Assembly: GCA_964485855.1 (NCBI GenBank) | Contig: CAZAKI010000004.1 | Location: forward strand, 2,343 to 66,342 | Direction: 5' to 3' | DNA: 64,000 nt | Source of the DNA: an uncultured Syntrophomonadaceae bacterium | GTDB taxonomy: Bacteria > Bacillota > Dethiobacteria > DTU022 | Part shown: one piece after another, positions 7,915 through 29,735 of the stretch | Position numbering within the stretch: the stretch's first letter is position 1 | Layout: each line of letters opens with the position of its first letter | The notes under the pieces: generated by a model | The model's input: the letters and a program-made list of their open reading frames with translations, nothing else | Databases searched by the model: none | What the model was told of the DNA's origin: nothing | Made by a program: the position numbers and the translations under genes

Positions 7915-8132
7915 TCGTTAAACCTCCTTAAAGAATATTAATAAAACCACGCGCAAAAAGATTCGGTCAATCACCTCCTCCAACTAATTTCGCATATTCA
8001 GAAAGCAAGCTATTGATTTCGATTAAAATATAAAATTTAGGGAATACTATTTTTTCTCAATATTATTAAATTCAATACCTCGCAGTAAATACCTTTATTA
8101 CAGTATAATAATTTTTATGCAACATTTTTGTT

Positions 8133-11596: not shown

Positions 11597-11937
11597 GTAA
11601 AAAATTTAACCAGCAATTTGCCTGCAGCCGGATGATGCTTCCCGAACACTGTGGCAGTTTGCGGGAACAGGCCGCCGCAAAAATAAAGGCCGAAGAACAG
11701 CGCAAACCCCTGATCGACGAACAACTACAGGAAGAACAACAGCAGCTCCTGGAACAAGCGCTCCGTGGCCGCAAGCGCCTGAGATTTGAAGTGCTTACCA
11801 GATCCGGCCGTGTATCCTTTAGCGGTGTGCCGCGCCGACTAGACGAAAATGCCGGTATGATTCTAATCGATACCGGCAGCAGCAAACTGGAGAAGATCAG
11901 TTCCGCCGCGGTGATCAAGCTCAGCGGTGAATACTGA
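11593..11937 (+). CDS. YolD-like protein (partner of Y-family polymerases)
   Basis: 114 aa. It overlaps the dinB stop by 4 nt (ATGA), and has the size and position typical of yolD/yozL-type genes downstream of uvrX/dinB homologues. Confidence 0.55.
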   Translation: MSKKFNQQFACSRMMLPEHCGSLREQAAAKIKAEEQRKPLIDEQLQEEQQQLLEQALRGRKRLRFEVLTRSGRVSFSGVPRRLDENAGMILIDTGSSKLEKISSAAVIKLSGEY

Positions 11938-11964
11938 TTGACTTCTCTCAGTTAAGCTTAAGGT

Positions 11965-13143
11965 TTATTCCATCTCAACAGTGCAGGCGATACCCTGACC
12001 ACCACCAATGCAGAGTGTTGCCAGACCTTTTTGCACCTTACGCTTTTGCATTTCGTAAAGCAGGGTTACAAATATCCTGGCTCCGCTAGCTCCAATCGGG
12101 TGACCAATGGCAATGGCCCCGCCATTAACGTTGACGATTGAAAGATCAAGGTTAAGTTCCCGACTGACAGCTAAAGCCTGCACGGCAAATGCTTCGTTGG
12201 CCTCGATCAGCTGCAAGTCAGGAACTGTCCATCCGGCTTTGGATAAAGCTTTTCTTGTAGCCGGTATCGGTCCGGTACCCATGATTGCCGGATCTACCCC
12301 GGCAGAGGCATAGCTCTTAATCAGGGCCAGCGGTTTTAAGCCAAGTTCTCTTGCCTTAGAGCTGCTCATCACTACCACTGCTGCAGCACTATCATTTATA
12401 CCGGAAGCATTTCCGGCAGTTACCGTGCCGTCTTTTTTGAAAGCAGGTTTGAGTTTGGCCAGTGCTTCGAGGGTCGTCATGCGTGGATGTTCGTCGACAG
12501 AAAAGATCAGGGGGTCACCCTTTCTCTGAGGCACTTCTACCGGAACAATCTCATCTTTAAAACGACCGTTTTCAATCGCCGCCATTGCTCTCTGCTGGCT
12601 TTCAAGCGCAAATTGATCCTGATCATCGCGGGTGATCTTAAATTTTACGGCAATATTTTCAGCTGTCATTCCCATGTGGTAATCATTGAATGCGCACCAT
12701 AAACCGTCTTTGATCATGGAATCCACCATGTTGCTGTCACCCATGCGCAACCCCCAACGGGCACCATTTACCAGGTAAGGAGCAGCGCTCATATTTTCTG
12801 TGCCGCCGGCCACGATTATTTCGGCTTCACCGGCAATAACAGCATTGGCAGCCAGGGTTATGCTACGTAACCCCGATCCGCAAACCTTATTAACTGCCAG
12901 GCAGGGGGTTTCATTTGGTAGCCCGGCCTTCAGGGCAGCCTGGCGCGCAACATTCTGACCCAAACCAGCCTGCAATACACAGCCCATGATCACTTCATCA
13001 ACCTGTTCAGGTTTTAAACCGGCTCGTTGTAAGGTCTCCTTGATCACCAGCGCTCCAAGGGTTACAGGACTGATATCTTTAAGTGATCCGCCAAAAGTGC
13101 CGACCGCAGTTCTTACAGCACTAACCACTACTGCTTCTTGCAT
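11965..13143 (-). CDS. Acetyl-CoA C-acetyltransferase (thiolase II)
   Basis: 392 aa with canonical thiolase motifs ([21 protein letters not shown], catalytic C-terminal GGGQG). Confidence 0.9.
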
Positions 13144-13166
13144 CTAGATTTCCTCCATTCTTTTTA

Positions 13167-13946
13167 CTAGGCTCGACCGATAATGTAGCGATAAGGATCG
13201 ACTTCGTTACGCAAAATATTTAATTCATCAGTTGTTGGTGGATTACTTTCTTGCAAACCGGCAGACCATAGTAACTCAAAGCCGGTATTCTCAACAATTT
13301 TTTCTTGACTGATTCCGGGATGCATACTTTCAACTTTCATCCGCTTGGTCTGCTCGTCAAATCCAATTACGCAAAGGTTGGTGATCACCTTGTAGGGACC
13401 GCTTCCGGGTGGCAAACCTGCTTCTTCCCTTGCTCCCGGGCCGGTTAGATAACCAGGGGTAGTGATAAAATCAATTTTTTCTGTAAAACGACGTTGATCC
13501 TGGGGAGTAATCATCATCGTCTTCCAACAGAGTGAACCAAGATCATTTGCCCCGCCGCTGCCCGGAAAGCGAACCTTTGGTTTGCGGTAATCGGTGCCGA
13601 TCATCGTCGAATTGATGTTGCCGTACTTATCAATCTGAGCTCCCCCCAGGAAGGTATAGTCAACCAGACCCCTTTGGCAGGTTTCCATGATATCCGGCAT
13701 ACTGCTGGCAGCCAAAGCCCGATAAAAGGTTCTTGAATCACCAACTGAAATCGGCATTGACGGTAATAGTGGACCGATGCCACCGGCTTCGAACATGATC
13801 ATCAAACGCGGTGAATAGAGTTTCTGGGCCAACATGGCCGCAGCACAAGGAGCTCCGGTGCCTACCACAACAATACTGTCATCTTCCAGATAACGCGAAG
13901 CAAGGCAGATCATCAGTTCCATGTCGTTATATTCCATTATCAACAA
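13167..13946 (-). CDS. Family I CoA-transferase subunit B (glutaconate/3-oxoacid CoA-transferase beta-like)
   Basis: 259 aa. It resembles GctB/AtoA-type beta subunits and lies immediately downstream of the subunit A gene. Confidence 0.8.
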   Translation of the reverse strand: MLIMEYNDMELMICLASRYLEDDSIVVVGTGAPCAAAMLAQKLYSPRLMIMFEAGGIGPLLPSMPISVGDSRTFYRALAASSMPDIMETCQRGLVDYTFLGGAQIDKYGNINSTMIGTDYRKPKVRFPGSGGANDLGSLCWKTMMITPQDQRRFTEKIDFITTPGYLTGPGAREEAGLPPGSGPYKVITNLCVIGFDEQTKRMKVESMHPGISQEKIVENTGFELLWSAGLQESNPPTTDELNILRNEVDPYRYIIGRA

Positions 13947-13970
13947 CCTCCTTGGCAGGTTACTAAATAT

Positions 13971-14993
13971 TTATTTTTCAATCAGATTTTCCTGGTGGCG
14001 CAGTTCCTGTAAGCGCTTTAAACCACCAATTTGATCAAGATAACCGTTGAAATCATTAACCCCATAAATATAACGATTAAGAAATTCAGCCAGTTCAGCT
14101 GGGTTGGCTTCTGCCTTTAACCACTCTCGCAAGTGGTCCTCGTCACTAAAATACTCGTAGGGCATATTACCAGGATAGCTGCCGAATGGCACCTCAATCA
14201 CGGCATCAACCAGATAATAAGGAATTACTGTTCTGGTTGGATCACGGCGAATCTGTTCATTGGGAATCAGCTTCTCGGTAGTGATAATCAAGCGCTTGGC
14301 GGCCCTGGCTAAATCGTTATCAGCAACCATGATCCCGTCAATCTGGCAGTTGCCGTAAATATCAGCCCGATGGACATGGATGATACCAACATCCGGGAAA
14401 AGTGCGGGTACCGCAAGATACTTAGCTCCGGTAAAAGGACACTCCATCTCCATCGCTGCACTGTATTTTTGGGTGTCAGTACCCAACATGCAGCGAATCG
14501 GCATAAAAGATAATCCCATTGCAGCCGCTTTGTAGCGCCAGGTGAGGGCGGCATTGGTCCATTCGGTGGTCTCCACTTCTCCGCTTTCGATTGCCAGGCG
14601 GGCAATCTTGGAAAGACCGCGTGCCTCTAATCCCACGACGTAAGCTATATCACAGCGATCAATACATTTACCGGCCACCAGAATCTGAAAATCATGGGTT
14701 GCCGTATGTCCAGCCAAGCCTAAATTCTTCTTCTTCTGGCGCACCATTTCGTGCAACACTGCTGTTGGAATCCGGTTAGCACCAAAACCGCCGACCCCTA
14801 CATAGTCACCATCGTTGATTAATTTATTTACCGCTTCACCAACCGTTGTTGTCTTTTCCACCATTTTACGAGGCTTTTGGTCACGAAAAAATAATCGAGC
14901 CCGATCGGCATCCGGATCAGTAAAAATTCTGCCACTGCCGGCTGGTTTGTAGATTGCCTGCTTTTCCTTTAATAATTCGCTGAAATCTGCCAT
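13971..14993 (-). CDS. Family I CoA-transferase subunit A (glutaconate CoA-transferase alpha-like)
   Basis: Similar to GctA. The preferred start is the ATG at 14993 after GGAGGTGG. The track start at 15020 is a GTG with a 1-nt spacer. Confidence 0.8.
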   Translation of the reverse strand: MADFSELLKEKQAIYKPAGSGRIFTDPDADRARLFFRDQKPRKMVEKTTTVGEAVNKLINDGDYVGVGGFGANRIPTAVLHEMVRQKKKNLGLAGHTATHDFQILVAGKCIDRCDIAYVVGLEARGLSKIARLAIESGEVETTEWTNAALTWRYKAAAMGLSFMPIRCMLGTDTQKYSAAMEMECPFTGAKYLAVPALFPDVGIIHVHRADIYGNCQIDGIMVADNDLARAAKRLIITTEKLIPNEQIRRDPTRTVIPYYLVDAVIEVPFGSYPGNMPYEYFSDEDHLREWLKAEANPAELAEFLNRYIYGVNDFNGYLDQIGGLKRLQELRHQENLIEK

Positions 14994-15099
14994 AAAACCA
15001 CCTCCTGTAATAATATCCACTTCCTTAGAAAGCTATTTCAGTTGCTACCATTAATAACCTCATGATCTATTCTATAGATTAATATTATTCCCTTCAACC

Positions 15100-15147
15100 A
15101 AAAAAGGTTAACCCCTCCTCACGGTTCGGTTGGAACGGATTAACCTT
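15100..15147 (-). terminator. Rho-independent terminator downstream of the acyl-CoA ligase gene
   Basis: AAGGTTAA…TTAACCTT stem. On the minus strand it is followed by a U-run (A-run 15100-15105 on the plus strand). Confidence 0.6.
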
Positions 15148-15172
15148 AATCGCTAGCCACTAGACTAGATTG

Positions 15173-16837
15173 TTAGACTGTAGTTTTTTCCATCTCTTTT
15201 TCCTTCAACACTCTTCTTAAGATTTTTCCAACACCGGATTTCGGAAGCTCATCGATAAATTCTATTACTTTAGGTATTTTGTAGGGGGCGAGCGACTCCC
15301 GGCAGTAGTCCTGCACTTCTTCGGCTGTAAGTTTTTCACCTTCCTGTAAAACCAGATAGGCCTTGACTGTTTCCCCCCGGTATTGATCGGGAACACCAAT
15401 TGTACAGGCTTCAGCAATTTTGGGATGACCGAAAAGAATATCGTCAATCTCATTCGGATAGATGTTAAAGCCACCGGCAATAATAATATCCTTTTTCCGG
15501 TCGACCACTGAGAGGTATCCTTCCTCGTCCATGACACCGATATCACCCGTGTAAAGCCATCCATCTCTTAACACTAATGCTGTTGCCTCAGGATTTTTGT
15601 AATAGCCTTTCATTACTTGGGGTCCCTTAATAATGATTTCACCGGCTTCACCAGCAGGCAGTTCCTTGGTTCCGGTATCTAGATCAACTATTTTTATCTC
15701 GGTATTAGGCACTGGTATCCCTTCAGTGCCGGCTTTTACTTTCCCGCCCCAGGGACTGACCGTTGCCGTCACCGTGCATTCGGTCAAACCATAGATACTG
15801 AGTAAATCAGAACCATTCAGTTCTTTTAAGCGGTTATAAGTATCAATTGGCAGCGGAGCACCACCGGAAAAGTAACCCTTGATAAAGGAAAGGTCCATGG
15901 TCTGAAACTCTTTGTTATTTAGCAAACCATTGTAGATGGTAGGAACTCCGGGCAGGTAATCAGGTTTATATTTTTTGATGGCTTCCAAAACATTTTCCGG
16001 ATCCGGGCGGGGAATAGTGATCGCTTCAAGAGCCATCCAAACTGGTAAATTCTGCATAATGGTAAACCCGGCAGTGTGAAAATAAGGCAAATCGGCTAGC
16101 AGCTTTTCACCTGGTTGGATCCCGGGCAACCAGGCGGCGAATTGCTGCACATTAATTGAAAGGTTCTCGTTGGTCTGCATAACCCCCTTACTGAGGCCCG
16201 TGGTCCCACCGGTATAGAGCAGGGCAGCCAGATCACTCCATGCTGACAGATCTTCTACCGGATCAGTAGAATAATTATCAATCAGGTCTGTAAACTGGTC
16301 TACTCCTTCCTGCGGCTCAATTTTACGATACATAGATTTTTTCACCAGAGGATAGAGCTGTTTCTTGGGAAATGGCAAGTAGTCGTTTATATGACAGGTT
16401 ATTATCCTCTTTAGTCCGGTTTCCTTTTTCAGCTTAAGCATCCGCGGCAGTAAAAGGTCAAGGCCGACAATAATTGTCGATTCAGAATCGTTTAGCTGAT
16501 GTTTTAGCTCTCTTTCCGTGTAAAGCGGGTTGTTCATCACACAAACGGCACCAATACGCATCGTAGCAAAGTTGGCAATTACCGTTTGGGGCAAATTGGG
16601 CATCAACAGGGCGACTTTGTTCCCGGCACAAACTCCTAAGTCAACCAGGGCTCTGGCAAATTGATTGACCAGCTGATCAAGCTGATTATAGCTGATCTTA
16701 TAACCCATCCAATTCAAAGCGGTGTAGGCAGGATACTGTTTAGCAGTCCGGGTTAGAACCCTGGACATGGTTATTTGATCAAAATTAATACTTTCCGGCA
16801 CTCCGGGCGCATACATTTTTACCCAGGGATAAGCCAT
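15173..16837 (-). CDS. AMP-dependent acyl-CoA synthetase/ligase (FadD-like)
   Basis: 554 aa with AMP-binding motifs (YTGGTTGLSKGV, GYGLTE, the TGD…GE…D core). Confidence 0.85.
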   Translation of the reverse strand: MAYPWVKMYAPGVPESINFDQITMSRVLTRTAKQYPAYTALNWMGYKISYNQLDQLVNQFARALVDLGVCAGNKVALLMPNLPQTVIANFATMRIGAVCVMNNPLYTERELKHQLNDSESTIIVGLDLLLPRMLKLKKETGLKRIITCHINDYLPFPKKQLYPLVKKSMYRKIEPQEGVDQFTDLIDNYSTDPVEDLSAWSDLAALLYTGGTTGLSKGVMQTNENLSINVQQFAAWLPGIQPGEKLLADLPYFHTAGFTIMQNLPVWMALEAITIPRPDPENVLEAIKKYKPDYLPGVPTIYNGLLNNKEFQTMDLSFIKGYFSGGAPLPIDTYNRLKELNGSDLLSIYGLTECTVTATVSPWGGKVKAGTEGIPVPNTEIKIVDLDTGTKELPAGEAGEIIIKGPQVMKGYYKNPEATALVLRDGWLYTGDIGVMDEEGYLSVVDRKKDIIIAGGFNIYPNEIDDILFGHPKIAEACTIGVPDQYRGETVKAYLVLQEGEKLTAEEVQDYCRESLAPYKIPKVIEFIDELPKSGVGKILRRVLKEKEMEKTTV

Positions 16838-16917
16838 TTTTAATCCTCCTCATTTCACCTGCAAAGGTTTTATCGAAGCAGTGCATAAATCGTTTGACGT
16901 TACCGTCCCGCAGATTA

Positions 16918-18111
16918 TCAGGTAATGATTAGCTGCAAATCGCTTAACGGATATGTTGAGCAGGTATGGATATAACCATATTCTAGATCTGCGGCCCGTC
17001 GGCCATCACCATCCTTTCTGATCAAGACTGACCCGGATAAGAGTAGAGCCCGACAGAAACCACATTCCCCTGAACGACATTGCGCATCAGGATTAAGGCC
17101 GGCACGTTCTAATGCCGTTAGGATCGTTTCGGCAGCAAGCGCCTTGATCATTCCAGTTTTTTCTCTTCTGGTGTACTGAATTGCGTAAAAAATGTTTCTG
17201 TTATCTTGCGGCTGATCATTATCGGTAAGGGGAATATCTGCCGTGGCTGTCGGTTCAGATCTGATCGATCTCCGGGGGATGCCCAACTTAGCAAGACTGT
17301 TCAGACAAAAAGTGGACATTTCAGGGGGACCACAGATAAAATAGCTATAGTTTAGCGGATCGTCAATCGCTTTTTGCAACACTTCAGCGGTAATAAATCC
17401 CCTGTAACCCTGCCAGCTAGCCGTAGGCTCGCTGAGCACATGAATTAAAGTAAACTGTTCAGGATGTTGTCGTGCCAGCTCGGCTAACTCTGCTTGAAAA
17501 ATAATATTTTTTTCATCACGACTGCCGTATAAGCAGATCATCCTGCGAGGTTTTCCCGTTTTAATCATTTCATTGATTAATGATCTGATCGGTGCAATCC
17601 CGCTGCCACCGGCCAAAGCGATAAGATCAGGTTGATCGCGCAGTGGATCGTAGTAGCAGTTGCCGTGCGGTCCTGTAGCAATGATTTCAAATCCAGGTTG
17701 CCAGCTATCCCAAATATATTCGCTGACAAAACCTCCTTCTTTATAAGCAATAGTCAGTTCATAAAAATTTTTTGAAAGATAAGGAGCTGATGATATTGAA
17801 TAGGGTCTAGAAACCACTTTATTGTTGATCTGTGCTTTTAGGCTCAGATATTGGCCGGCTCGAAAATATGGTAATCCCGTTTCTCTCCTTGAAGATATTA
17901 AGCGGTAAGATCTTACCCCTTTTATTTCCTGCCGGACATCACTAATCATTAATTTCAGGCAGGGTGGATGCAAGGCCAAGGAAAGATCACGGATTGGGTC
18001 CGACATATCGATTACCGCTCCTGAGACGGCCATTTTTTCCATCCGCTCACTGTTTAAGGCAAACATCTTCTCCAAATCCTTGTCTAAACCAGACGCTTCC
18101 ATTAACTGCAC
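16918..18111 (-). CDS. FNR-like FAD/NAD(P)-binding oxidoreductase with C-terminal plant-type [2Fe-2S] ferredoxin domain (PDR/VanB-like reductase)
   Basis: 397 aa with an RxYS FAD motif and an NAD-binding GGSGIAP motif. The C-terminal CRSGECGFCR motif indicates a 2Fe-2S cluster. Confidence 0.7.
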   Translation of the reverse strand: MQLMEASGLDKDLEKMFALNSERMEKMAVSGAVIDMSDPIRDLSLALHPPCLKLMISDVRQEIKGVRSYRLISSRRETGLPYFRAGQYLSLKAQINNKVVSRPYSISSAPYLSKNFYELTIAYKEGGFVSEYIWDSWQPGFEIIATGPHGNCYYDPLRDQPDLIALAGGSGIAPIRSLINEMIKTGKPRRMICLYGSRDEKNIIFQAELAELARQHPEQFTLIHVLSEPTASWQGYRGFITAEVLQKAIDDPLNYSYFICGPPEMSTFCLNSLAKLGIPRRSIRSEPTATADIPLTDNDQPQDNRNIFYAIQYTRREKTGMIKALAAETILTALERAGLNPDAQCRSGECGFCRALLLSGSVLIRKDGDGRRAADLEYGYIHTCSTYPLSDLQLIIT

Positions 18112-19763
18112 CCTCCCTGGAAAGTATTCTCCTGATTTCCTGCATGTAGTTTCTTAAGCTGGTGAAGTACTGTGGCGGCTGCAATACGTCCGGAAATAAT
18201 TGAGGGAGCATAACCATGCCCCATCGAGGCAAAACCACCAACAAATTCTAGTCCTTTAATATATTTTTCGTGATGTAAATTCATCGAACGAGCAACAACT
18301 GAATCCCAGGGATCCTGCTCATAGCCGTACATCACTCCGCGATAAGCTCCTGTATAGCGATGAAAGGTTTGTGGAGTTGCTATTTCAATCTCTTCAATAT
18401 ACTTATCTAGTGGCACGCCAAGGTATTGACTCATCTTTTCAATCATCCCTTGAGCAACACGGGTTTTAGTTTCAATATAGTTGGCCGGAGTAATGTTTTT
18501 CCAGACATCCGACCCAACCAAGCTGGTACTGGACAAAATAGTCGTCCCCGGAGGCGAGCAGCTTGGATTAGCTCTATTCAGGCAGATAACAGCTTGCATC
18601 TCCTGCGCCTCGATACAGAAAAAATTACGGTATGCTTTCTCGGTATCCATAGCAGAACCGATAAAGTAGCCATAGCTATTCAGGTTCAAATCATCAGGAG
18701 AACGATTCAACCCCAAATAGACAACAACAGCACTGGTTCCCAGCTTGCGTGCGTTTGTGTTCTTTAATGCAGCTTCTGGAACAGCTCCGTGCGGATGAAT
18801 CAGCTTTCCGTATACCAGGTGTGGCGAAAGGTTTGCAACTACAAACGGCGCCTTAAATGTTTCACCGGCAGCTGTTTCCACGCCAACTGCCCTTCCTCCT
18901 TCGACAAGTATTTTGGTTATTTCAGTGTTGAAATATAGCTGGCATCCAAGTTCCCTTAATTTCTTTTCCATGGCCGTAGCGAGACCATGTGAATTGAGCC
19001 TGGGAATATAGGCTCCCCTGTTCAAGTAACTATAAAGCATTACGGCAAATATGGTAAAACTTAAGCGGCTGACCGGCACTCCAAGGTAACACCAGTAAGG
19101 GTAGATCATCTGTAAAACCCTTGAATTAAAATTGAATCTACCCACTACATCCGCGACAGTATAACCGGCAGTCGCTACAAAAGAAGGATATTGTTCAAGC
19201 AGTTTATTTAAGTCTGGAGCACCCCTGATACTGCCCAAGTAACTAAGGGCTCTTGAAACCTCCTGGCAAACAGCAAGAAACTTTTGCAAATCGGAGCGAC
19301 AGCCGGGTTCACTTTTCGCTACAGCTTCAATATAATTGTCAATCCCAAAGGGCAGGCTGATATCAATATTATCTTCACTTAGGATCAAGTGGTAAGCTTC
19401 CGGAACCGGGATGAAATCTATATTCATTTTTAATTCGTCTTCAAAATAGCGACGAACTGCTCCTTTTTTTTCCGGTGAGCCGATATCAGAAAGCTCATGC
19501 AACGACACTTCAAATTCAAAACGTCCCCGCACAAAGCTGGTGGCAAATCCTCCAGGCAGATTATGTTTTTCCAACAGTAAGATCTTCGCTCCATCGTTGG
19601 CCAATTTAAGTGCCGCTGACAGACCGCCAAGTCCAGCGCCAATTACCAGGGCATCATAGATTTCATCTTTATTGATTGCCGGTGCGGCTACGTCTTGTTT
19701 CATTTTTTTCACCTCGTCGGTCCATTGATCAAAATGTTTATAGGAATAATCAAGCTGCAGCAA
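18102..19763 (-). CDS. FAD-dependent oxidoreductase, phytoene desaturase (CrtI) / amine-oxidase superfamily
   Basis: 553 aa with N-terminal DALVIGAGLGGLSAALKLANDGAKILLLEKHNLPGG dinucleotide-binding motif typical of CrtI-family enzymes. It overlaps the start of the reductase gene by 10 nt. Confidence 0.75.
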   Translation of the reverse strand: MLQLDYSYKHFDQWTDEVKKMKQDVAAPAINKDEIYDALVIGAGLGGLSAALKLANDGAKILLLEKHNLPGGFATSFVRGRFEFEVSLHELSDIGSPEKKGAVRRYFEDELKMNIDFIPVPEAYHLILSEDNIDISLPFGIDNYIEAVAKSEPGCRSDLQKFLAVCQEVSRALSYLGSIRGAPDLNKLLEQYPSFVATAGYTVADVVGRFNFNSRVLQMIYPYWCYLGVPVSRLSFTIFAVMLYSYLNRGAYIPRLNSHGLATAMEKKLRELGCQLYFNTEITKILVEGGRAVGVETAAGETFKAPFVVANLSPHLVYGKLIHPHGAVPEAALKNTNARKLGTSAVVVYLGLNRSPDDLNLNSYGYFIGSAMDTEKAYRNFFCIEAQEMQAVICLNRANPSCSPPGTTILSSTSLVGSDVWKNITPANYIETKTRVAQGMIEKMSQYLGVPLDKYIEEIEIATPQTFHRYTGAYRGVMYGYEQDPWDSVVARSMNLHHEKYIKGLEFVGGFASMGHGYAPSIISGRIAAATVLHQLKKLHAGNQENTFQGGCS

Positions 19764-19829
19764 AGCAAACAGAAGTTGTTTCTGTATTTAATGCTGCAGC
19801 TTAAGGTAGAATAATTTCAGTTTTTTTAT

Positions 19830-20615
19830 TTAGCGACCTTTAAAAACTGGTTTGCGCTTCTCCAAAAACGCAATGACTCCTTCCCGGTGATCCTCAGTTT
19901 GAAAACAGACACTTTGGGCATATATTTCTAGTTCCATGACCTGGTCCAAGCTTAAACTGCTGCTGGCATTAAGAATCTCTTTGGCCTGGGCCAGGGCAAC
20001 AGCAGGTCCTTCAGCCAACTGGGCAGCTAAGGCTATTGTTTTATCAAGCAAATCTTCATCGGCAAAAAGATCGTTAACAATTCCGACGCGTTTGGCCTCG
20101 GAAGCGCTGATGTTGCTGCCGGAAAAAACCAATTCTTTCGCTTTCTGTAATCCCACCAACCGCGGAAGGAAATAGAGAGCGCCACAATCCGGTATGGCCC
20201 CGACTTTAACAAAGGCCATGCCAAATTTGGCTGACTCGGCGGCATAGATCAGGTCACACATCAGGGCCAAAGAAAATCCGGCGCCAACAGCATAACCATT
20301 TACCGCAGCGAGGACAGGTTTTCCTACCCTGGTAAGTTCAAGGATCTGCCCGTAACCATCTTTTAACCACTGCCGGCCTTCAACCAGTTCAAATCCCTGC
20401 ATCAGGCGGCTTAAATCACCTCCTGAAGAAAATACTTTTCCGGTGCCGGTCAAGACGATCGCGCCAATGTCGGGATCCGCACCGGCATGACGAACTGCAT
20501 CAACTAAATCTTTCGCCAGGGCAGCCTCGAGAGCATTCATCATTTCCGGCCTGTTCAGACGAATCAGGGCAACCCGTTTATCAACTTCATAGATGATCGT
20601 TTCATAGTCTTTCAA
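19830..20615 (-). CDS. Enoyl-CoA hydratase/isomerase (crotonase family)
   Basis: Crotonase fold motifs (ALIRLNRPE…GGDL). The preferred start is the TTG at 20615, 9 nt after GAGGTG, giving MKDYETIIYEVD…. The track start at 20684 overlaps the upstream thiolase gene by 56 nt. Confidence 0.75.
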   Translation of the reverse strand: MKDYETIIYEVDKRVALIRLNRPEMMNALEAALAKDLVDAVRHAGADPDIGAIVLTGTGKVFSSGGDLSRLMQGFELVEGRQWLKDGYGQILELTRVGKPVLAAVNGYAVGAGFSLALMCDLIYAAESAKFGMAFVKVGAIPDCGALYFLPRLVGLQKAKELVFSGSNISASEAKRVGIVNDLFADEDLLDKTIALAAQLAEGPAVALAQAKEILNASSSLSLDQVMELEIYAQSVCFQTEDHREGVIAFLEKRKPVFKGR

Positions 20616-20628
20616 GCGATTCACCACC

Positions 20629-21834
20629 TCATTCTTTACCAAGGATACAGATACTGCAAACATTTTGTGAAGGAACACCGCCAAGATTGTGGCTAAGTCC
20701 CATTTTAGGGTCTTTAACCAGGCGATCTTCAGGCCAGCGTCTGAGCAATTGGTTATAAAGCTCGTAAATCATCCGTAAGCCTGAAGCGCCGATCGGGTGA
20801 CCGAAGCACTTTAATCCTCCGTCAGGCTGACAAGCCACCTGACCGTCAAGATCATAAAAGCCACTAAGGATATCATCGGGAGCTTTTCCGGGTGGCGAAA
20901 TCTGCAAATCTTCCATGGTAACCATTTCGGTAATTGAAAAACAATCATGGACTTCAATCATCCCAATCTCTTCCCGCGGTTTTTTTATTCCCGCTTCAGC
21001 ATAGGCTTTTTCCGCGGCATGCTGGGTAGTCATCAATCCGCTGCCGTCCCATTGATTGAAAATTAGCTCTTCGCCTGAACTGACCGATATCTGCAGTGCT
21101 TTAACCAATACTAACTCTTGGTTTGGTTTCAGTTTCCTGGCAATCTCAGGAGTTGTAACAATTGCCATCGCTGATCCGTCACTGACCCCACAGCAGTCAA
21201 AAAGACCAAGCGGGTAAGCAACAAATGGCGATTCACAAATCTGGACAGTCGAAACTTCTTTGCGCAAGTGGGCCTTCGGATTCTTAACACCATTTTGATG
21301 ACTTTTCCAAGAAATATGGGTAATCGCCTCTTTGATTTTATCCATCGGGATACCATACTTTGCCGAATATGCTGTAGCTAACTGGGCAAACATTCCCGGA
21401 GCTGTGGCATTGGGACTCAGTAAACGTGATAACTGACCAAAAATAGGTGAATCGGGCAATCCACCGTAACCGATATCTTTCAGTTTCTCAACCCCGGCAG
21501 CCAAAACGATATCGTAAGCGCCGGAGGCAACAGCATAGCAGGCCCCGCGGAAGGCTTCAGTTCCGGAAGCACAAAAATTTTCCACTCGCGTAACCGGTAT
21601 AAAGGGCAGATGCAGAGCATTGGACAGGTAACAACCTCCCTTGCCAATGCTGATTTCGTCGATATGATTACCAATCCAGGCTGCATCGATATCTTTTTTT
21701 TCAATCCCGGCGTCTTCTAAGCATTCAAGAAAAGCTTCAAGCAAAAGGTCAACGGAATCATCTTCCCAGCGTTCACCAAAAACAGAGCAACCCATACCGA
21801 GAACTGCTACTTTATCCCTGATTCCATCAGCCAT
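20629..21834 (-). CDS. SCP-x/non-classical thiolase-family protein (archaeal-type/lipid-transfer-protein-type thiolase)
   Basis: 401 aa with a thiolase fold but no classical thiolase II motifs. It resembles the SCP2-type thiolases that partner with DUF35 proteins, and overlaps the upstream DUF35-fusion gene by 8 nt. Confidence 0.75.
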   Translation of the reverse strand: MADGIRDKVAVLGMGCSVFGERWEDDSVDLLLEAFLECLEDAGIEKKDIDAAWIGNHIDEISIGKGGCYLSNALHLPFIPVTRVENFCASGTEAFRGACYAVASGAYDIVLAAGVEKLKDIGYGGLPDSPIFGQLSRLLSPNATAPGMFAQLATAYSAKYGIPMDKIKEAITHISWKSHQNGVKNPKAHLRKEVSTVQICESPFVAYPLGLFDCCGVSDGSAMAIVTTPEIARKLKPNQELVLVKALQISVSSGEELIFNQWDGSGLMTTQHAAEKAYAEAGIKKPREEIGMIEVHDCFSITEMVTMEDLQISPPGKAPDDILSGFYDLDGQVACQPDGGLKCFGHPIGASGLRMIYELYNQLLRRWPEDRLVKDPKMGLSHNLGGVPSQNVCSICILGKE

Positions 21835-23293
21835 CTGTAGGCACCTCCTTCACCGGGACCGCCTTCCAAAAATAAAATGTTGTGTCCCGCTTGGAATCAA
21901 AGTATTTGATCCGAAATGAAAAGCGCACATCCATCCCCACCTGTAAGTCATCGAGGACACAATCGGTGAAATCCATCATGCAACGTCCTCCGTGCTCAAA
22001 ATCAACATTACCATAAATTGCCGGGGGATTAATCGTGGCAGCCAACAGATCGGAAGTAAAACTGACGATTTTTCCCTTCTTGGTTGCCAGGATTACCTTC
22101 TCCATCCGATCAACGGCTCCGCAGTCAGGGTTAACACAAACTCGTTGAGGCGGGTACTGCTGCGTGCCACATTCTAAGCAGCGGCTGCCCTGCAAACTTA
22201 AAATCGCCTTGCGACTGCGCCAGACCAAGGACCAGCGGGTTAGTCGTTCTTCTTCCCCGCGCATCCCGATTTCTAATGGCAGCATGTCGCGCCAGGAGAG
22301 ATACTTATAGAGACTATCAAGTTCCTGTTGGTTTTTAATTGAATCAGTTACTCTTAATCTGTCGTGATATGTACTAATCGCTTCGGTGACTTCAAAGATT
22401 AGGGCATCGCAACCATTACCGTAACTTAAAACCAAAAGGCGTTCTCCCGGGACGGCGTCTTCCAGGGCTTTTGCCAGCATCAACAAGGGATGAGCCGAAC
22501 CGGTATCACCAACATCCATCATCAGATCATCCTGTACCTGTTCGGGAGTAAGCCCCAATTTACGATTAATATTTTTTCTTGCCCCACCATAATAACAGGG
22601 ATAAATTACTTTATGAAAATCAGAGACTTCAAGATCAAATTTTCTGCAGATCCCCTGAATCGCTTCTGGAATCAGGCGATCGTAGCCAAGATCCCTAATC
22701 CAACGTTCTTCCCATTGGCGATCATATTTCGAATTTGCACCACGTAGGTGATCAACAAAGTCGCACGAAAGTGAATAGGATCCTTTAAAAATAGCAATCG
22801 GATCCTTTCCACCGACCATAATCGCTGCTCCGCCATCGGCAAAAACCATTTCCTGGACCGAACCAACCTTACCCATGCGGCAATCTGCAGCACAGGCAAG
22901 AGCCTCTTTTCCCTTTTCTGCTGCTGAATATTCGAGGGCTGCTAGCAGAGCTGCCGTTCCCGATTTTACTGAGCCGGCAAAATCAGCAGTTCTAATTTCT
23001 TCTTCAGCGGCAAGAGCTCCAGCAACAATATTTGCATTTTGTCTTTCTTTATAAGGTGCAGTTGTCGAAGCAAAATATACTGCTCCCAAATCCTGCGGAT
23101 TAAAACCACGCAGGCAGCGAGACCCTGCCGCCACAGCCATCGTGATGGCATCTTCATCACAATTGGCTACCGACTTATCACCAGCCGCATTCATGATAAT
23201 GGCCGGATTAAACCACCCAATAGCACTAAAAATCGTCATCCGGTTAAGTCGGTAACGGGGGATATACCCTGCATAAGAACATATTCCAACCAA
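21827..23293 (-). CDS. HMG-CoA-synthase/KAS-III-like condensing-enzyme domain fused to a C-terminal DUF35 (Zn-ribbon + OB-fold) domain
   Basis: N-terminal VGICSYAGYIPRYRL and catalytic Cys/His context match HMGCS-like enzymes. The C-terminal CLECG…C…C Zn-ribbon with an OB-fold is DUF35. The preferred start is the TTG at 23293 after AAAGGAG; the track start overlaps maoC by 83 nt. Confidence 0.7.
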   Translation of the reverse strand: MVGICSYAGYIPRYRLNRMTIFSAIGWFNPAIIMNAAGDKSVANCDEDAITMAVAAGSRCLRGFNPQDLGAVYFASTTAPYKERQNANIVAGALAAEEEIRTADFAGSVKSGTAALLAALEYSAAEKGKEALACAADCRMGKVGSVQEMVFADGGAAIMVGGKDPIAIFKGSYSLSCDFVDHLRGANSKYDRQWEERWIRDLGYDRLIPEAIQGICRKFDLEVSDFHKVIYPCYYGGARKNINRKLGLTPEQVQDDLMMDVGDTGSAHPLLMLAKALEDAVPGERLLVLSYGNGCDALIFEVTEAISTYHDRLRVTDSIKNQQELDSLYKYLSWRDMLPLEIGMRGEEERLTRWSLVWRSRKAILSLQGSRCLECGTQQYPPQRVCVNPDCGAVDRMEKVILATKKGKIVSFTSDLLAATINPPAIYGNVDFEHGGRCMMDFTDCVLDDLQVGMDVRFSFRIKYFDSKRDTTFYFWKAVPVKEVPTDG

Positions 23294-23318
23294 TTGTCGA
23301 TCGCTCCTTTCTCCAATT

Positions 23319-24164
23319 CTATGGGTTAAGCCAGACTGATGCGTTAGTAAGGCAATACTCTCCACGTTCAGCTGTTTTCGACCGGATGATGATCTGATCA
23401 TCTTTTTCCTGCCACATTTCGGTCACAATGGTTTCACCTGGATAGACATGACGAGAAAACCGGACTTTTATCGCCTTAAATTTTTTTGGATCATTGGCGC
23501 AGTACTCCTGTAAAACCGCTCTGCCGGCAAAACCAAAGGTGCAGAGTCCATGCAAAATCGGCCGGTCAAAACCGCCCATCGCGGCAAAGTTAGGATCGGC
23601 ATGCAGTGGATTAAAATCTCCAGACAACCGATACAACAAAGCCTGCTGGCGTATAGTTTTCATCGCAACTACCTTGTCCGGTTCTCTTTCTGGTGGATCA
23701 AAACAGGGATCGGGACCGCGTTCTCCACCAAACCCCCCTTCGCCACGGATAAAAGTGCTGAAGCGGTTCTTGAAAATATCAACTCCTTTGGAGTTTTTAG
23801 TGATAACATCTATTTCCACTAAAGCTCCCTTGACCTTGTCATAAATCGCCGCGATTTTCGGATAAGAGATTAGAGTTCCTTCACTGGGTATCGGTTGGTA
23901 GAGTTCCAGATACTGTTCACCGTGCAGCAGCATTGCCAGGTTAAAATCCATCCCCTCCATGCCCACAATACTGAATAAGGCACCAAAGGGCGGAACTACC
24001 CCATAGGTTGGAATTACCTCCAATTCACTCTCATATACAAATTTAAGCTCATCGGGTTCAGCACCGGCACCGATTCCCAAAGCATAAAGGATAACATCCT
24101 TTGTAGAATACTTATACTCTAATGAAGTTAACTCTTTTCCCACCAGATTCGGATCTATTGGCAT
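23319..24164 (-). CDS. MaoC-like (R)-specific enoyl-CoA hydratase with tandem hot-dog folds (MFE-2 hydratase-2 type)
   Basis: 281 aa. N-terminal PIDPNLVGKEL…YALGIGAG matches the hydratase-2 N-terminal hot dog, and a MaoC motif lies in the C-terminal half. Confidence 0.8.
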   Translation of the reverse strand: MPIDPNLVGKELTSLEYKYSTKDVILYALGIGAGAEPDELKFVYESELEVIPTYGVVPPFGALFSIVGMEGMDFNLAMLLHGEQYLELYQPIPSEGTLISYPKIAAIYDKVKGALVEIDVITKNSKGVDIFKNRFSTFIRGEGGFGGERGPDPCFDPPEREPDKVVAMKTIRQQALLYRLSGDFNPLHADPNFAAMGGFDRPILHGLCTFGFAGRAVLQEYCANDPKKFKAIKVRFSRHVYPGETIVTEMWQEKDDQIIIRSKTAERGEYCLTNASVWLNP

Positions 24165-24211
24165 TCAAATACCCCCTTTCATCGCTGACACATATTGATA
24201 CTGCCTTCGGG

Positions 24212-25123
24212 TCAGTCCATACTCATCTTAGATAGGACAGTTCCAGCTTGTTCCATAGCTGAAGCATATTCACGTCCACCTTCAAGGTTCATAATCTGAT
24301 CAAGTTTCTCAACAACCATTTCAACTGTTATTTCTTTGTTTGAATCAAAGACTACCCCGGGACCTTCGACAATAGCTGCCCGGCTGAAATATCCTCCCCC
24401 GGCACTAAACATTCTGGCAGTCTCAGTACAGTTTTCCGAACAAAGCCAGGCAACAATCGGAGCCACATATTCCGGCTTGACCTTGCCGATTACATCTTCA
24501 GGCATGACGGTAAAGGTAAGCCTGGTTCCGGCAGTCGGCACTATAGTATTAGCCTTGATATTGTAACGGTTGCCTTCCTGGGCAACGCAGTTCATCATCC
24601 CAGCAATACCCATTTTTGCAGCACCGTAATTCACCTGACCAAAGTTACCGTATAAACCTGCAGCCGAAGCTGTGGAAACAATCCGTCCGTAGGTTTGCGC
24701 TTTCATCTGGGCAAAGGCGGCCTTGGTACAGAAAAATGTTCCATCCAAGTGAACTGATATAATCTTCCGGTAGTCTTCCAGTTCCATTTTCAATAAGCTC
24801 TTGTCCCTTAAAATACCGGCATTGTTAACCAAGATATCGATCCGGCCGTAATTATCGACAGCGGTCTTGATAATTTTTTGTGCACTTTCCCATTCGGCCA
24901 CACTATCATAACTGGCAAGAGCATCACCACCAGCAGCTTTAATTTCATCGACTACCTGCTGGGCCGGAGTGGTATCTGACCCACTGCCGTCAAAAGTACC
25001 TCCTAAATCGTTAACCACAACTTTGGCACCCCGCGAAGCTAGGAGTAGAGCATAAGCCTTGCCCAATCCACCACCGGCACCGGTCACTACAGCGACTTTA
25101 TCGTCAAACCTGATTTCAGACAT
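24212..25123 (-). CDS. SDR-family 3-hydroxyacyl-CoA dehydrogenase (MFE-2 dehydrogenase-domain type)
   Basis: 303 aa. VAVVTGAGGGLGKAYALLLASRGAKVVVNDLGG is the MFE-2/HSD17B4-like SDR N-terminus. A YxxxK catalytic motif is present. Confidence 0.85.
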   Translation of the reverse strand: MSEIRFDDKVAVVTGAGGGLGKAYALLLASRGAKVVVNDLGGTFDGSGSDTTPAQQVVDEIKAAGGDALASYDSVAEWESAQKIIKTAVDNYGRIDILVNNAGILRDKSLLKMELEDYRKIISVHLDGTFFCTKAAFAQMKAQTYGRIVSTASAAGLYGNFGQVNYGAAKMGIAGMMNCVAQEGNRYNIKANTIVPTAGTRLTFTVMPEDVIGKVKPEYVAPIVAWLCSENCTETARMFSAGGGYFSRAAIVEGPGVVFDSNKEITVEMVVEKLDQIMNLEGGREYASAMEQAGTVLSKMSMD

Positions 25124-25180
25124 TTTTGAATAACCTCCTTGAATAGACTAGATATTTTAAGTTTATTGCTTTGAATGCGT

Positions 25181-25216
25181 TTAATCAATATTTTTAATCA
25201 ATTATATATTTTGATA
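25181..25216. promoter_or_regulatory. Candidate operator: direct repeat TTAATCAAT(x2) and inverted repeat AATCAA-N9-TTGATA in the divergent regulator/beta-oxidation intergenic region
   Basis: Visible dyad and direct repeats lie in the 196-bp AT-rich region between the SDR gene (minus strand) and the MerR-TetR regulator gene (plus strand). Confidence 0.35.
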
Positions 25217-25319
25217 ATAAATCCTGAAGTCACAATCATTTTTCACTTAGAAATAAAGGATATATTTAACTAGCGTATAATATTCATATAAAGATCTTTC
25301 TATCCTCGGAGGATTTCGC

Positions 25320-26192
25320 ATGGAATTATCACCGGAAGAAAAAGTGATGCGCATTGGCCAACTAGCGAAAAAAACAGGAATCAGCAAGCAATTGATCCAT
25401 TATTATCTACGGATGGATTACCTGCATAAACCGGTCTATAAAAAAGGAAATCAGGCCTATTATGATCAGAGTCATCTAGAACGTCTGCGATTTTTGAAAA
25501 AATGCAATGAGGAAGCTATCCCCCTGTCCTACGCCTCAGCTATATGGGAACGTAAAACAAAACATTCTCCGGCCCAAAAAATCAAGCGCATACCTAAAGA
25601 TTATTCTGAATCAAGAACAAAAGATCAGATTATCCGTGACGCTTCCCAATTATTCTTACAAAAAGGTTACAGCAACACTACTATTGCTGAAATTATGGAA
25701 AGAGTAGGTATTACTAAGCCATCATTTTATTATTACTATAGGAACAAAAAAGACCTTTACTTGGCCTGCCTGGACAGCATTTTTGAAGCATTTTCAAAAA
25801 AAGCTCTTGACAGCATCAGGAAAGAAAAAACGCCGCTTGGTCGGCTAGAACAGCGTTGGAAGGCTGGCCATGGCCATTCAAAAAGAGTATTAACGTCGAT
25901 CAATTTGCTAAAAGAATCATTACGCCAGGAAGATGCGGAAGAACGTTTGCGGGCAGAAGAAATTTTAAGAAAAGCATGGGTCGATCCACTAACCAGGGAT
26001 CTGGAAAGAGGGATTAAAAGTGGAGTAATTCGGAACATAAACAGCGAGATCGCCAGTTTTACCCTTATTTCAATGCTCGATACATTTTCTTACCGCGAGA
26101 TATTAGACAAAAAATTCGGATCCGCACTGGTGTTGGAAACTGTTTATGATCTTGTTCTACATGGTCTACTACAAGCAAATTCAGAGGGATAG
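25320..26192 (+). CDS. Chimeric transcriptional regulator: N-terminal MerR-type HTH fused to a TetR-type HTH plus TetR C-terminal ligand-binding domain
   Basis: 290 aa. Residues ~9-75 (MRIGQLAKKTGISKQLIHYYLRMDYL…) are MerR-like. Residues ~100-150 (…SNTTIAEIMERVGITKPSFYYYYRNKKDLY) are a TetR HTH, followed by a helical TetR-like C-terminal domain. Confidence 0.75.
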   Translation: MELSPEEKVMRIGQLAKKTGISKQLIHYYLRMDYLHKPVYKKGNQAYYDQSHLERLRFLKKCNEEAIPLSYASAIWERKTKHSPAQKIKRIPKDYSESRTKDQIIRDASQLFLQKGYSNTTIAEIMERVGITKPSFYYYYRNKKDLYLACLDSIFEAFSKKALDSIRKEKTPLGRLEQRWKAGHGHSKRVLTSINLLKESLRQEDAEERLRAEEILRKAWVDPLTRDLERGIKSGVIRNINSEIASFTLISMLDTFSYREILDKKFGSALVLETVYDLVLHGLLQANSEG

Positions 26193-26307
26193 TTTAATAA
26201 ATTTTGATAGTTCATTCTTGTTTCGCCATTTTTCTTTAACCGCTTATATTTAAAACTGTCTCTAACCAGGTTCGGGTGCTTTTTTCTTAAGAACTTTCTT
26301 CAGCAAT

Positions 26308-27431: not shown

Positions 27432-27448
27432 TAGTTCAACTCAGGCCT

Positions 27449-28240: not shown

Positions 28241-28268
28241 CTGATCATTCCTCCTTACGAATTAATAA

Positions 28269-29633: not shown

Positions 29634-29653
29634 CGGTTGTCCCTCGTATTGTT

Positions 29654-29671
29654 TAATTATGATCATAATTA
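29654..29671. promoter_or_regulatory. Perfect 18-bp palindrome TAATTATGATCATAATTA in the nfeD leader; candidate repressor (Rrf2?) operator
   Basis: The sequence is self-complementary as read. It lies between the divergent nfeD and Rrf2 genes, about 21 nt upstream of the preferred nfeD start. Confidence 0.4.
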
Positions 29672-29735
29672 TACTACAATTAAGAAGGCTTTTCAAATAT
29701 TAGAATAATCTTTCATAAATTTACAGCTTGCACTA

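Follow-up and report, generated by a model that had tools for sequence, protein, structure and literature searches.

A beta-oxidation-like island of an uncultured Bacillota bacterium, with a CrtI-fold/FNR flavoenzyme that may reduce unsaturated fatty-acyl chains

What does a beta-oxidation-like gene island do when it encodes neither an acyl-CoA dehydrogenase (ACAD) nor an electron transfer flavoprotein (ETF), and what part is played in it by a flavoprotein of the carotenoid-desaturase (CrtI) fold? The question is raised by positions 11965–25123 of a 64-kb window (the whole stretch of DNA analysed, to which all coordinates refer) from a bacterium catalogued as an uncultured member of the Syntrophomonadaceae. 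Eleven long open reading frames (ORFs) fill this interval, all on the minus strand, with short gaps or overlaps between them and a strong family match for every gene. An earlier, sequence-only reading of the locus had described the same strand-coherent block with thirteen genes, where we find eleven co-directional genes and a divergent MerR::TetR regulator. Domains were assigned with Pfam and NCBIfam profiles, matches to the Protein Data Bank (PDB), tblastn, and an AlphaFold2 (AF2) model with fold comparison. Orthologous islands were compared at loci L004, L009, L010, L096 and L097; L001, L002, L094 and L095 are contigs of the same organism as the window. A scan of metagenomes with a single protein query gave five loci, two of them new. 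Our answer is tentative: at somewhat less than an even chance, the island serves, under its own regulator, the catabolism of unsaturated long-chain carboxylic acids, with unsaturated fatty acids as the simplest case, and the CrtI-like protein and its reductase partner form in it an NAD(P)H-driven C=C reductase.

The CrtI-fold FAD protein (18102–19703, minus strand, 533 aa), the probable catalytic subunit of a two-component oxidoreductase, carries the N-terminal GxGxxG FAD motif as VIGAGLGGL. It scores 122 bits against crtI_fam (TIGR02734; cut-off 238), 116 against carot_isom (cut-off 587) and 86–99 against CrtD models (cut-offs 500–580). Its AF2 model (pLDDT 82.7) matches 4rep with a TM-score of 0.75–0.81 at 21% identity and 4dgk with a TM-score of 0.55–0.70, and a profile match to 4rep has E=1.5e-27. 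It is a remote member of the CrtI superfamily with the full-length fold and without a characterised close relative. With CrtI, CrtD and CrtISO it shares the fold and the FAD-binding motif, 4rep being the best structure; it differs from them in its low identity (17–21%), its scores under the NCBIfam cut-offs, its almost obligate pairing with an NAD(P)H reductase, its anaerobic hosts and its fatty-acid gene neighbourhoods, with no carotenoid genes nearby (crtB, crtE and cyclases are absent from the window and from the recurrent neighbours in 80+ loci). The partner (16918–18102, minus strand) is an FNR-type reductase with FAD_binding_6, NAD_binding_1 and a C-terminal plant-type 2Fe-2S domain; its nearest named families are PaaE, GbcB and Hcr, and the start of its gene overlaps the stop of the CrtI-like gene. 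The sequence-only reading had identified both proteins correctly. Literature searches found no paper on the pair, and a candidate relative, the putative isoprene reductase of Acetobacterium, belongs to a different, glutamate-synthase-like family.

A relative of the CrtI-like protein occurs in at least 576 species-representative genomes. Homologues with 42–70% identity come from uncultured Bacillota, Syntrophomonadaceae, Syntrophales/Smithellaceae, Spirochaetes, Anaerolineae/Chloroflexota and Promethearchaeota/Hermodarchaeota, and, among cultured anaerobes, from Natronincola peptidivorans and Clostridium oceanicum. In 85 of 88 loci, from Bacillota, Syntrophales, Asgard archaea, Spirochaetes and Chloroflexi, the CrtI-like gene stands next to the FNR/2Fe-2S gene or is fused to it, and 19 protein clusters from Syntrophales/Deltaproteobacteria are natural fusions of about 915–950 aa with the reductase N-terminal. 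Because of this adjacency and fusion we regard the two proteins as one two-component enzyme; pairing this strict suggests a stoichiometric supply of electrons.

Three neighbourhoods, independent of each other and phylogenetically separate, agree in pointing to a fatty acyl substrate for the pair. The genes around it in Syntrophales are an ortholog of the island's FadD-like ligase (56–63% identity), crotonase-fold proteins without the hydratase glutamates, a FabK-like reductase, a fusion of a short-chain dehydrogenase/reductase (SDR) with SCP2, an SCP2-type thiolase and up to three long ACADs; one of the crotonase-fold proteins has a D/E/D triad that we take to be that of a Δ3,5-Δ2,4-dienoyl-CoA isomerase. 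In six of eight Spirochaete loci DegV (FakB), FakA or both follow immediately downstream on the same strand, and a GntR regulator with an FCD/FadR_C domain adjoins the pair in eight loci from Bacillota, Spirochaetota and Syntrophales. Natronincola has a FadH/OYE-family (old yellow enzyme) protein and an SDR next to the pair, and this FadH-like neighbour supports a fatty-acyl C=C reductase. Fatty-acyl neighbours together with a partner of the electron-donor class (PaaE, Hcr, GbcB) are the grounds on which we propose NAD(P)H-dependent C=C reduction. That the pair is, more generally, a widespread NAD(P)H-dependent fatty-acyl C=C reductase (a "fatty-acid saturase") of anaerobes, from Bacillota, Syntrophales and Spirochaetes to Asgard archaea, is possible and rather doubtful.

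One Syntrophales locus, L014, is a more peroxisome-like version of the island. Its SDR::SCP2 fusion (L014:27–1418) joins an MFE-2-like dehydrogenase to a sterol-carrier domain, and the locus also holds an SCP2-type thiolase, an ACAD, a family-III CoA-transferase, a ligase, a crotonase-fold protein, a metallophosphoesterase and an FNR::CrtI fusion.

The missing ACAD bears directly on what the pair does. As the sequence-only reading had it, no ACAD or ETF lies in or adjacent to the island: Pfam scans of the tested ORFs found no such domain across the 64 kb, three ACADs and ETF α/β used as tblastn queries matched nothing in the window or in L004, L009, L010, L011, L096 and L097, and none is found within ~10 kb of the five orthologous islands. 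That reading had gone further and made the CrtI-like flavoprotein and its reductase the island's acyl-CoA desaturase, in place of ACAD/ETF. The same absence, in the window and beside the five orthologous islands, speaks for this, as does the fact that CrtI enzymes do introduce C=C bonds; yet the Syntrophales pairs sit beside ACADs, which amounts to co-occurrence, not substitution, and most pair loci, in most lineages, have no beta-oxidation genes alongside. Acyl-CoA oxidation (E0′ about −10 mV) with NAD+ (−320 mV) is strongly endergonic, and for an NAD(P)-linked FNR to accept electrons from the acyl-CoA/enoyl-CoA couple, energy has to be put in. None of the genes nearby encodes a quinone- or ETF-linked partner, and an FNR-type NAD(P)H:2Fe-2S protein points to electron delivery. 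We find the replacement unsupported and judge it very improbable.

The crotonase-fold protein of the island (19830–20615, minus strand; ECH_1, PaaG/enoyl-CoA isomerase type) looks like an enoyl-CoA isomerase-type enzyme and not a canonical hydratase. This reading depends on two features: both hydratase glutamates are replaced (E144 of rat hydratase 1dub by S and E164 by F, in the proteins of the window, L004, L009 and L010), and a PaaG-type Asp is present in an IPDCG or VPDCG loop in four of four island orthologs, presumably the catalytic residue as in PaaG and DCI. PaaG structures, 6sl9 and 4fzw_C among the top matches, align at E=3e-51 to 5e-45 (6sl9, 6sla, 4fzw_C), but with 199 bits against the PaaG model TIGR02280, under its cut-off of 345, it does not count as PaaG proper. 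Isomerases take part in the degradation of unsaturated chains, which supports the proposed function of the island; with the crotonase no hydratase, the only hydratase in the island would be the R-specific one. The ligase (15173–16837, minus strand) has AMP-binding and AMP-binding_C domains and is FadD/LcfA-like, its best NCBIfam matches being long-chain-fatty-acid–CoA ligases. Orthologs with 56–79% identity stand beside the pair in Bacillota (L004, L010, L011) and in Syntrophales (L005, L013, L014, L015, L017).

Hydration and the second oxidation would fall to R-specific enzymes of the peroxisomal MFE-2 type. The SDR (24212–25123, minus strand) is an MFE-2-type (3R)-hydroxyacyl-CoA dehydrogenase by its matches to 2et6 (E=1e-137), 1zbq (E=7e-91), 1gz6 (E=2e-90) and 3oml (E=2e-87). 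Its KVVVNDLGG segment aligns identically with the solved MFE-2 dehydrogenase domains, and the Asp that ends strand β2 in VVVNDLGG, which by the cofactor rules for SDRs we take as the mark of NAD(H), suggests that this is its cofactor. Beside it the R-specific enoyl-CoA hydratase 2 (23319–24164, minus strand), a MaoC protein with a double hot-dog fold, matches Pfam MFE-2_hydrat-2_N and MaoC_dehydratas, the hydratase-2 of human MFE-2 (1s9c, E=5e-75) and the further hydratase-2 structures 7mku and 1pn2.

Thiolysis would take place on a complex of archaeal character. A 488-aa protein (21827–23293, minus strand) fuses a domain like 3-hydroxy-3-methylglutaryl-CoA synthase (HMGS) to DUF35 (zinc ribbon and OB fold); it matches PhlA (9skh, E=4e-38; 5m3k) and archaeal HMGS (6esq_I), and its C-terminus matches the DUF35 protein 6esq_E. 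The E-C-H-N tetrad of HMGS reads T-V-P-D in the window protein, and alignment to 6esq_I gives T-(V/L/I)-P-D in 12 of 12 family members from several phyla; to judge from these residues the HMGS-like domain is catalytically dead and the protein is a scaffold subunit of a thiolase complex. The gene of its partner overlaps that of the scaffold by 8 nt (21827–21834). This partner, an SCP2/archaeal-type thiolase (20629–21834, minus strand; the ACAT, or acetyl-CoA acetyltransferase, subunit), scores 633 bits against NF004810 (cut-off 403) and matches 6esq_A, the thiolase of the archaeal complex and its best solved relative, at E=1e-57, as well as the SCP2-thiolase 6hsj and BbsB (7pxp). It is predicted to be catalytically competent, with the motifs NFCASGT (CxS nucleophile), VHDCF (HDxF) and FGHPIGASG (GHx) all intact.

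Three further genes are accessory. Two CoA_trans subunits of the glutaconate-CoA-transferase family lie on the minus strand, A at 13971–14993 (1poi_A, E=4e-35; also the AibA-like 5mzw and IpdA, 6con) and B at 13167–13937; 3-oxoacid transferase models fall far under their cut-offs (45 against 128 and 27 against 244). Thiolase II (acetoacetyl-CoA thiolase; 11965–13143, minus strand; Thiolase_N/C), a terminal step, scores 502 bits against TIGR01930 (cut-off 240). A route through isovaleryl-CoA like that of Myxococcus Aib, which would combine HMGS, an AibAB-like transferase and a reductase, was rejected; the HMGS domain is dead, and the transferase and thiolase II lie outside the conserved core described below.

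The sequence-only reading had recognised most of these families. Its MFE-2-type SDR (very close to the eukaryotic domains 2et6 and 1zbq), MFE-2-type MaoC hydratase-2 (close to human 1s9c), SCP-x-type thiolase, acyl-CoA ligase (now FadD-like) and classical thiolase (now thiolase II) all hold, and so does its general view of a beta-oxidation-like island of eukaryotic and archaeal type, built from MFE-2-type R-specific enzymes and a DUF35-associated SCP2-type thiolase. The HMGCS-like::DUF35 architecture is as described, and what changes is its role, scaffold in place of enzyme, with the whole catalytic tetrad lost. The crotonase keeps its family membership and loses its function as a hydratase. 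The CoA-transferase A and B genes are indeed two CoA_trans subunits, of the glutaconate (GctAB) type and not AtoDA/ScoAB-like. We agree, too, that the substrate is not inferable from sequence. The branched or bulky substrates that had been suggested are weakened by the FadD/LcfA-like ligase, by the FakA/DegV and FadR-like neighbours of the pair and by the cleavage of acetoacetyl-CoA by a related complex (PMC12960953), and are still compatible with the island.

A core of eight genes (regulator, SDR, hydratase-2, scaffold, thiolase, isomerase-like protein, CrtI-like protein and FNR) is kept in five Bacillota lineages at 47–89% identity (the window, L004, L009 with L096/L097, and L010), and the ligase comes next in order in three of the five. 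The CoA-transferase subunits are found only in the islands of this organism (L001, L002, L094, L095) and are missing from L004, L009, L010, L096 and L097; outside this organism thiolase II has an ortholog only in L004 (74% identity), upstream and on the other strand. Parts of the core also stand alone, the scaffold-thiolase pair in L093, L099 and L100 and a four-gene SDR–hydratase-2–scaffold–thiolase operon in other Bacillota (L090–L092). Since these two modules and the CrtI-like/FNR pair each occur separately elsewhere, the island is a nested assembly of modules; each beta-oxidation part belongs to a known family or is a variant of one, and their combination is a new variant. Wherever SDR and MaoC are missing, the scaffold-thiolase pair is accompanied by a conserved ORF of ~108 aa without a Pfam match, directly upstream of the HMGS-like::DUF35 gene (L093:8601–8930, L099:7553–7879, L100:7617–7943), itself preceded in L099 and L100 by a nitroreductase gene.

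The regulator (25320–26192, plus strand) fuses an N-terminal MerR domain (MerR_1, residues 10–74) to a C-terminal TetR domain (TetR_N, 104–150). An ortholog with 54–69% identity stands in the same divergent position in L004, L009, L010, L096 and L097, and we presume it to be a repressor of the island that responds to acyl-CoA or fatty acids. The regulator–SDR intergenic region holds nothing beyond weak AT-rich palindromes, and promoter and terminator consensus scans over 11500–26300 were near chance (34 versus 24 ± 5 and 23 versus 16 ± 4) and gave no usable operon boundaries. Several starts in the naive ORF list were too long; gene calls on the identical contig L001 give 488, 261, 533, 394, 340 and 256 aa. 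A 1-bp indel, deduced from a one-base shift in coordinates, separates the window from the otherwise identical public contig k141_1194393 (L001) and lies in the 80-bp spacer between FNR and ligase (about 16838–16917).

Put together, the parts suggest the following course. The FadD-like ligase would form the acyl-CoA, and the PaaG/ECI-type crotonase-fold isomerase would shift double bonds into conjugation with the thioester. The two-component flavoenzyme, acting as a fatty-acyl saturase, would then reduce those C=C bonds of the acyl chain that would otherwise stall beta-oxidation, with electrons passing from NAD(P)H through the FNR flavin and the 2Fe-2S cluster to the FAD of the CrtI-fold subunit. 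An unfused MFE-2 (hydratase-2 and NAD-dependent (3R)-hydroxyacyl-CoA dehydrogenase) would carry the chain through R-3-hydroxy intermediates, and the SCP2/archaeal-type thiolase would cleave it on the dead HMGS::DUF35 scaffold. In this genome only, the GctAB-type CoA-transferase and thiolase II may take up short-chain end products. The CrtI-like enzyme would have no part in α,β-dehydrogenation, which would depend on ACAD/ETF encoded elsewhere in the genome or be partly bypassed, because the substrates would arrive already unsaturated. What the sequences show in this scheme is the identity of the domains, which catalytic residues are lost or retained, and how the modules are conserved and what surrounds them; which way electrons flow, that the chemistry is C=C reduction, which head group the substrate bears (free acid or CoA ester) and the chain type are inferred.

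Several points weigh against this scheme. Chemistry is not readable from a CrtI fold, and this CrtI subfamily is without an assayed enzyme; enzymes of the superfamily variously desaturate, isomerise (CrtISO, PAI) or hydroxylate (limonene dehydrogenase CtmAB). The head group is not fixed, as the Fak context implies free fatty acids and the island context CoA esters. Were the pair to saturate the chain fully, the dedicated R-specific module would be left unexplained. An ACAD/ETF elsewhere in the genome is assumed, the analysis covering 64 kb of it, and most Asgard and Chloroflexi neighbourhoods of the pair contain no lipid genes (the Asgard neighbours, namely cation efflux, Ldh_2, glycyl radical enzyme, metallo-β-lactamase (MBL)-fold and Fer4 proteins, are uninformative). 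The nearest named relatives of the DXS protein, at 67–72% identity, come from metagenome-assembled genomes (MAGs) of unclassified Bacillota and of Dethiobacteria, a placement by which a fatty-acid-oxidising lifestyle of the host is not established. We have accordingly not assumed a Syntrophomonadaceae lifestyle for the host, yet the closest island lies in a MAG labelled Syntrophomonadaceae.

Some arrangements around the pair recur in archaea. A PFL-like (pyruvate formate-lyase-like) glycyl radical enzyme of ~990 aa lies ~340 bp upstream of it on the opposite strand in seven Asgard (Promethearchaeota/Hodarchaeota) loci (L023, L025, L026, L035, L037, L040, L052), and in 13 Asgard loci the pair is followed by a cation-efflux protein and an Ldh_2 dehydrogenase; both arrangements may be shared synteny only. 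At seven loci of archaeal MAGs (Asgard and unclassified) the pair has an MBL-fold gene as a neighbour, and in a Syntrophomonadaceae MAG an MBL-fold hydrolase and PcrB (heptaprenylglyceryl/GGGP synthase family) are directly upstream (L054:7880–9610). These neighbours are a possible link to isoprenoid lipids, one that no current model explains.

An isoprenoid or polyene acid as substrate would also give the island a different meaning. The MFE-2/SCP2-type enzymes would degrade 2-methyl-branched acyl-CoAs that are already α,β-unsaturated, for instance those of acids derived from carotenoids, phytol or polyprenols. The CrtI-like step would be redox-neutral or oxidative (an allylic hydroxylation without O2 like that of CtmAB, or a cis-trans isomerisation like that of CrtISO), and the FNR/2Fe-2S protein would merely keep the flavin reduced or carry electrons off. 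In eukaryotes 2-methyl-branched chains are handled by MFE-2 and SCPx, the closest named families and folds of the CrtI-like protein are carotenoid enzymes (crtI_fam, CrtISO, 4rep), and the missing ACAD is neatly explained, such substrates needing little or none. PcrB adjoins the pair in L054, and an SDR::SCP2 fusion and a family-III CoA-transferase are further genes of locus L014 in Syntrophales. The ligase, however, is FadD-like, and neighbourhoods with Fak/DegV and FadR-like genes are more in keeping with ordinary fatty acids; the island has no alcohol or aldehyde dehydrogenases to bring a hydroxylated hydrocarbon to the acid, and the family-III transferase near it is SUGCT-like, not racemase-like. 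For enzymes that need reduced flavin only catalytically (CrtISO, oleate hydratase, IDI-2) we know of no dedicated or fused reductase. A precedent in favour is the limonene dehydrogenase CtmAB of Castellaniella defragrans, whose COG1233 flavoproteins are encoded with a 2Fe-2S ferredoxin (CtmE) and an NADH:ferredoxin reductase (CtmF) (PMC4109377). On balance the isoprenoid explanation seems unlikely.

The same genes could also be read in the anabolic direction, as an archaeal-type elongation that depends on CoA and not on acyl carrier protein (ACP), in which thiolase and DUF35 condense, the SDR reduces, MaoC dehydrates and the pair is the enoyl-CoA reductase. Each of the four steps finds a single candidate in the island, which has no ACAD, and fatty-acid synthesis in Sulfolobus acidocaldarius uses a complex of ketothiolase (KT)/DUF35, R-specific SDR and MaoC with a separate enoyl-CoA reductase (bioRxiv 10.1101/2024.07.05.601840); the SDR–MaoC–scaffold–thiolase module also stands alone in other Bacillota, with thiolase II nearby. 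Against this, the bacterial dead-HMGS/ACAT/DUF35 complex is thiolytic only, the SDR motif is of the NAD type where the archaeal reductase is specific for NADPH, the isomerase-like protein has no role in synthesis, the FadD-like ligase is co-conserved with the pair, and the pair occurs among ACADs in Syntrophales and also with FakAB, where no CoA cycle is present. We hold elongation to be quite improbable. Hardly any room is left for a known pathway in disguise, benzylsuccinate (bbs) beta-oxidation or steroid side-chain degradation; as the sequence-only reading implied, the island is not a described operon of either kind, gene content and order being different. Both pathways use DUF35, MaoC and SCP2-type thiolases, and some of the weaker PDB or NCBIfam matches are to BbsB and BbsD. 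The score against the BbsB model, however, is 134 bits where the cut-off is 750; the island does not contain a BbsEF-type transferase, BbsG ACAD and BbsH in the bbs order, and DUF35 is fused to a dead HMGS, neither free (BbsA) nor on MaoC (ChsH2; no ChsH-type MaoC-DUF35 is present). Chs/FadE ACADs, the Ltp2 aldolase and ring-degradation genes are likewise missing, and the thiolase keeps its catalytic Cys and His. Gene content effectively refutes both pathways.

Beyond the island, the window contains housekeeping genes and, at 95–8828, a cluster for the catabolism of purines and oxamate. The cluster comprises xanthine-dehydrogenase-type 2Fe-2S (95–568) and FAD (565–1395) subunits, AllG (1438–2739), an FdrA/AllF-like protein of CoA-ligase fold (3000–4553), a PucR regulator (4712–6466), a xanthine/uracil permease (6547–7914) and AllH (8133–8828); AllF, AllG and AllH form an oxamate carbamoyltransferase set, here in an anaerobic member of the Bacillota. 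Between the cluster and the island, 1.7 kb downstream of the latter, lies a family-III CoA-transferase (9022–10215, minus strand), 34% identical to the family-III transferase inside L014 and closest to succinate-hydroxymethylglutarate CoA-transferase (SUGCT; 9br6, E=6e-99). A role as α-methylacyl-CoA racemase (AMACR) was rejected, the protein being SUGCT/formyl-CoA-transferase-like, with racemases at ~1e-30; it may serve either the island or the purine cluster. Separating it from the island, directly downstream of the last island gene and in opposite orientation, are a Y-family DNA polymerase (IMS/DinB-like) and a YolD-like protein (10364–11937, plus strand), an arrangement also seen on contigs L001 and L002. 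Just past the regulator (26508–29696, minus strand) come a DagK/YegS-like lipid kinase, an SPFH/Band-7 protein and an NfeD membrane protease; the lipid kinase is not kept beside the island in L004. Unrelated to the island are an ADP-forming acetyl-CoA synthetase-like protein (~705 aa) followed by an AAA_26/DRTGG protein (33701–36907, plus strand) and an IspH(LytB)::S1 fusion protein (43856–45925, minus strand).

Should the pair prove to be a C=C reductase, it would put a name to an enzyme for biohydrogenation and for the formation of saturated acids from oleate in anaerobic digesters, physiologically known for decades, and would be a candidate for the saturation before beta-oxidation that has long been suspected in the syntrophic degradation of unsaturated long-chain fatty acids. 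It would also serve as a marker gene in at least 576 species-level genomes, Asgard archaea included, and in this island the saturase would be wired to a bacterial, scaffolded, R-specific "peroxisome-like" beta-oxidation. For the orphan ACAT/HMGS-DUF35 complexes the island suggests a plausible place in metabolism, that of the thiolase in an R-specific beta-oxidation operon with a split MFE-2, such as is found in other Bacillota as well. It shows anaerobic bacteria joining eukaryote-like parts (MFE-2, SCP2-thiolase) to archaeal-like ones (thiolase/HMGS/DUF35), a combination that bears on how peroxisomal beta-oxidation relates to the CoA-based fatty-acid metabolism of archaea.

Among known systems, the closest functional analogy that we propose for the pair is FadH-type 2,4-dienoyl-CoA reductase, in which electrons pass from NAD(P)H through a flavin, an Fe-S cluster and a second flavin to a C=C bond, and which, as we suggest for the pair, is an auxiliary enzyme of unsaturated fatty-acid beta-oxidation alongside enoyl-CoA isomerases. 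The two are not homologous: FadH consists of an OYE TIM barrel, a 4Fe-4S cluster and a pyridine-nucleotide-disulfide-type domain, whereas the pair is a CrtI fold with FNR/2Fe-2S. In its components the pair is like the Ctm system, where a flavoenzyme of the phytoene-dehydrogenase family, independent of O2 and encoded in an island for lipid or terpene degradation, works with a 2Fe-2S protein and an NADH-linked reductase. Ctm, however, has two paralogous catalytic subunits with separate ferredoxin and reductase where the pair has one catalytic subunit and a single FNR::2Fe-2S protein, and it oxidises the methyl group of a hydrocarbon; the likeness is drawn from components, not from the sequences of CtmA and CtmB.

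The rest of the island recalls three systems. Peroxisomal MFE-2 (HSD17B4) and SCPx have very similar dehydrogenase and hydratase-2 domains and an SCP2-type thiolase; there, MFE-2 is fused in one polypeptide, whereas in the island dehydrogenase and hydratase-2 are separate genes without an SCP2 domain, no acyl-CoA oxidase is present and the host is an anaerobic bacterium. The archaeal thiolase/DUF35/R-specific SDR/MaoC system is made of the same protein families and differs in that its direction is probably opposite, its SDR is of the NADPH and not the NAD type, its scaffold lacks the extra dead HMGS domain, and its reductase is a medium-chain dehydrogenase/reductase (MDR) enzyme and not a CrtI-fold/FNR pair. 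The PfACAT/HMGS-DUF35 complex of Pseudomonas fluorescens (January 2026) cleaves acetoacetyl-CoA and does not condense acetyl-CoA (PMC12960953). It shares with the island a fused HMGS-like::DUF35 protein beside an SCP2/archaeal-type thiolase, the tetrad lost and CxS, HDxF and GHx kept, and has PhlACB, MucABC and the archaeal thiolase/HMGS/DUF35 complex as relatives. About 1,000 bacterial ACAT/HMGS-DUF35 loci are regarded there as an evolutionary intermediate with no pathway assigned, and no hydratase or SDR neighbours of the complex are named (PMC12960953); the operon described here, by contrast, also holds an MFE-2-type SDR, hydratase-2, an isomerase, the CrtI-like/FNR pair and a ligase.

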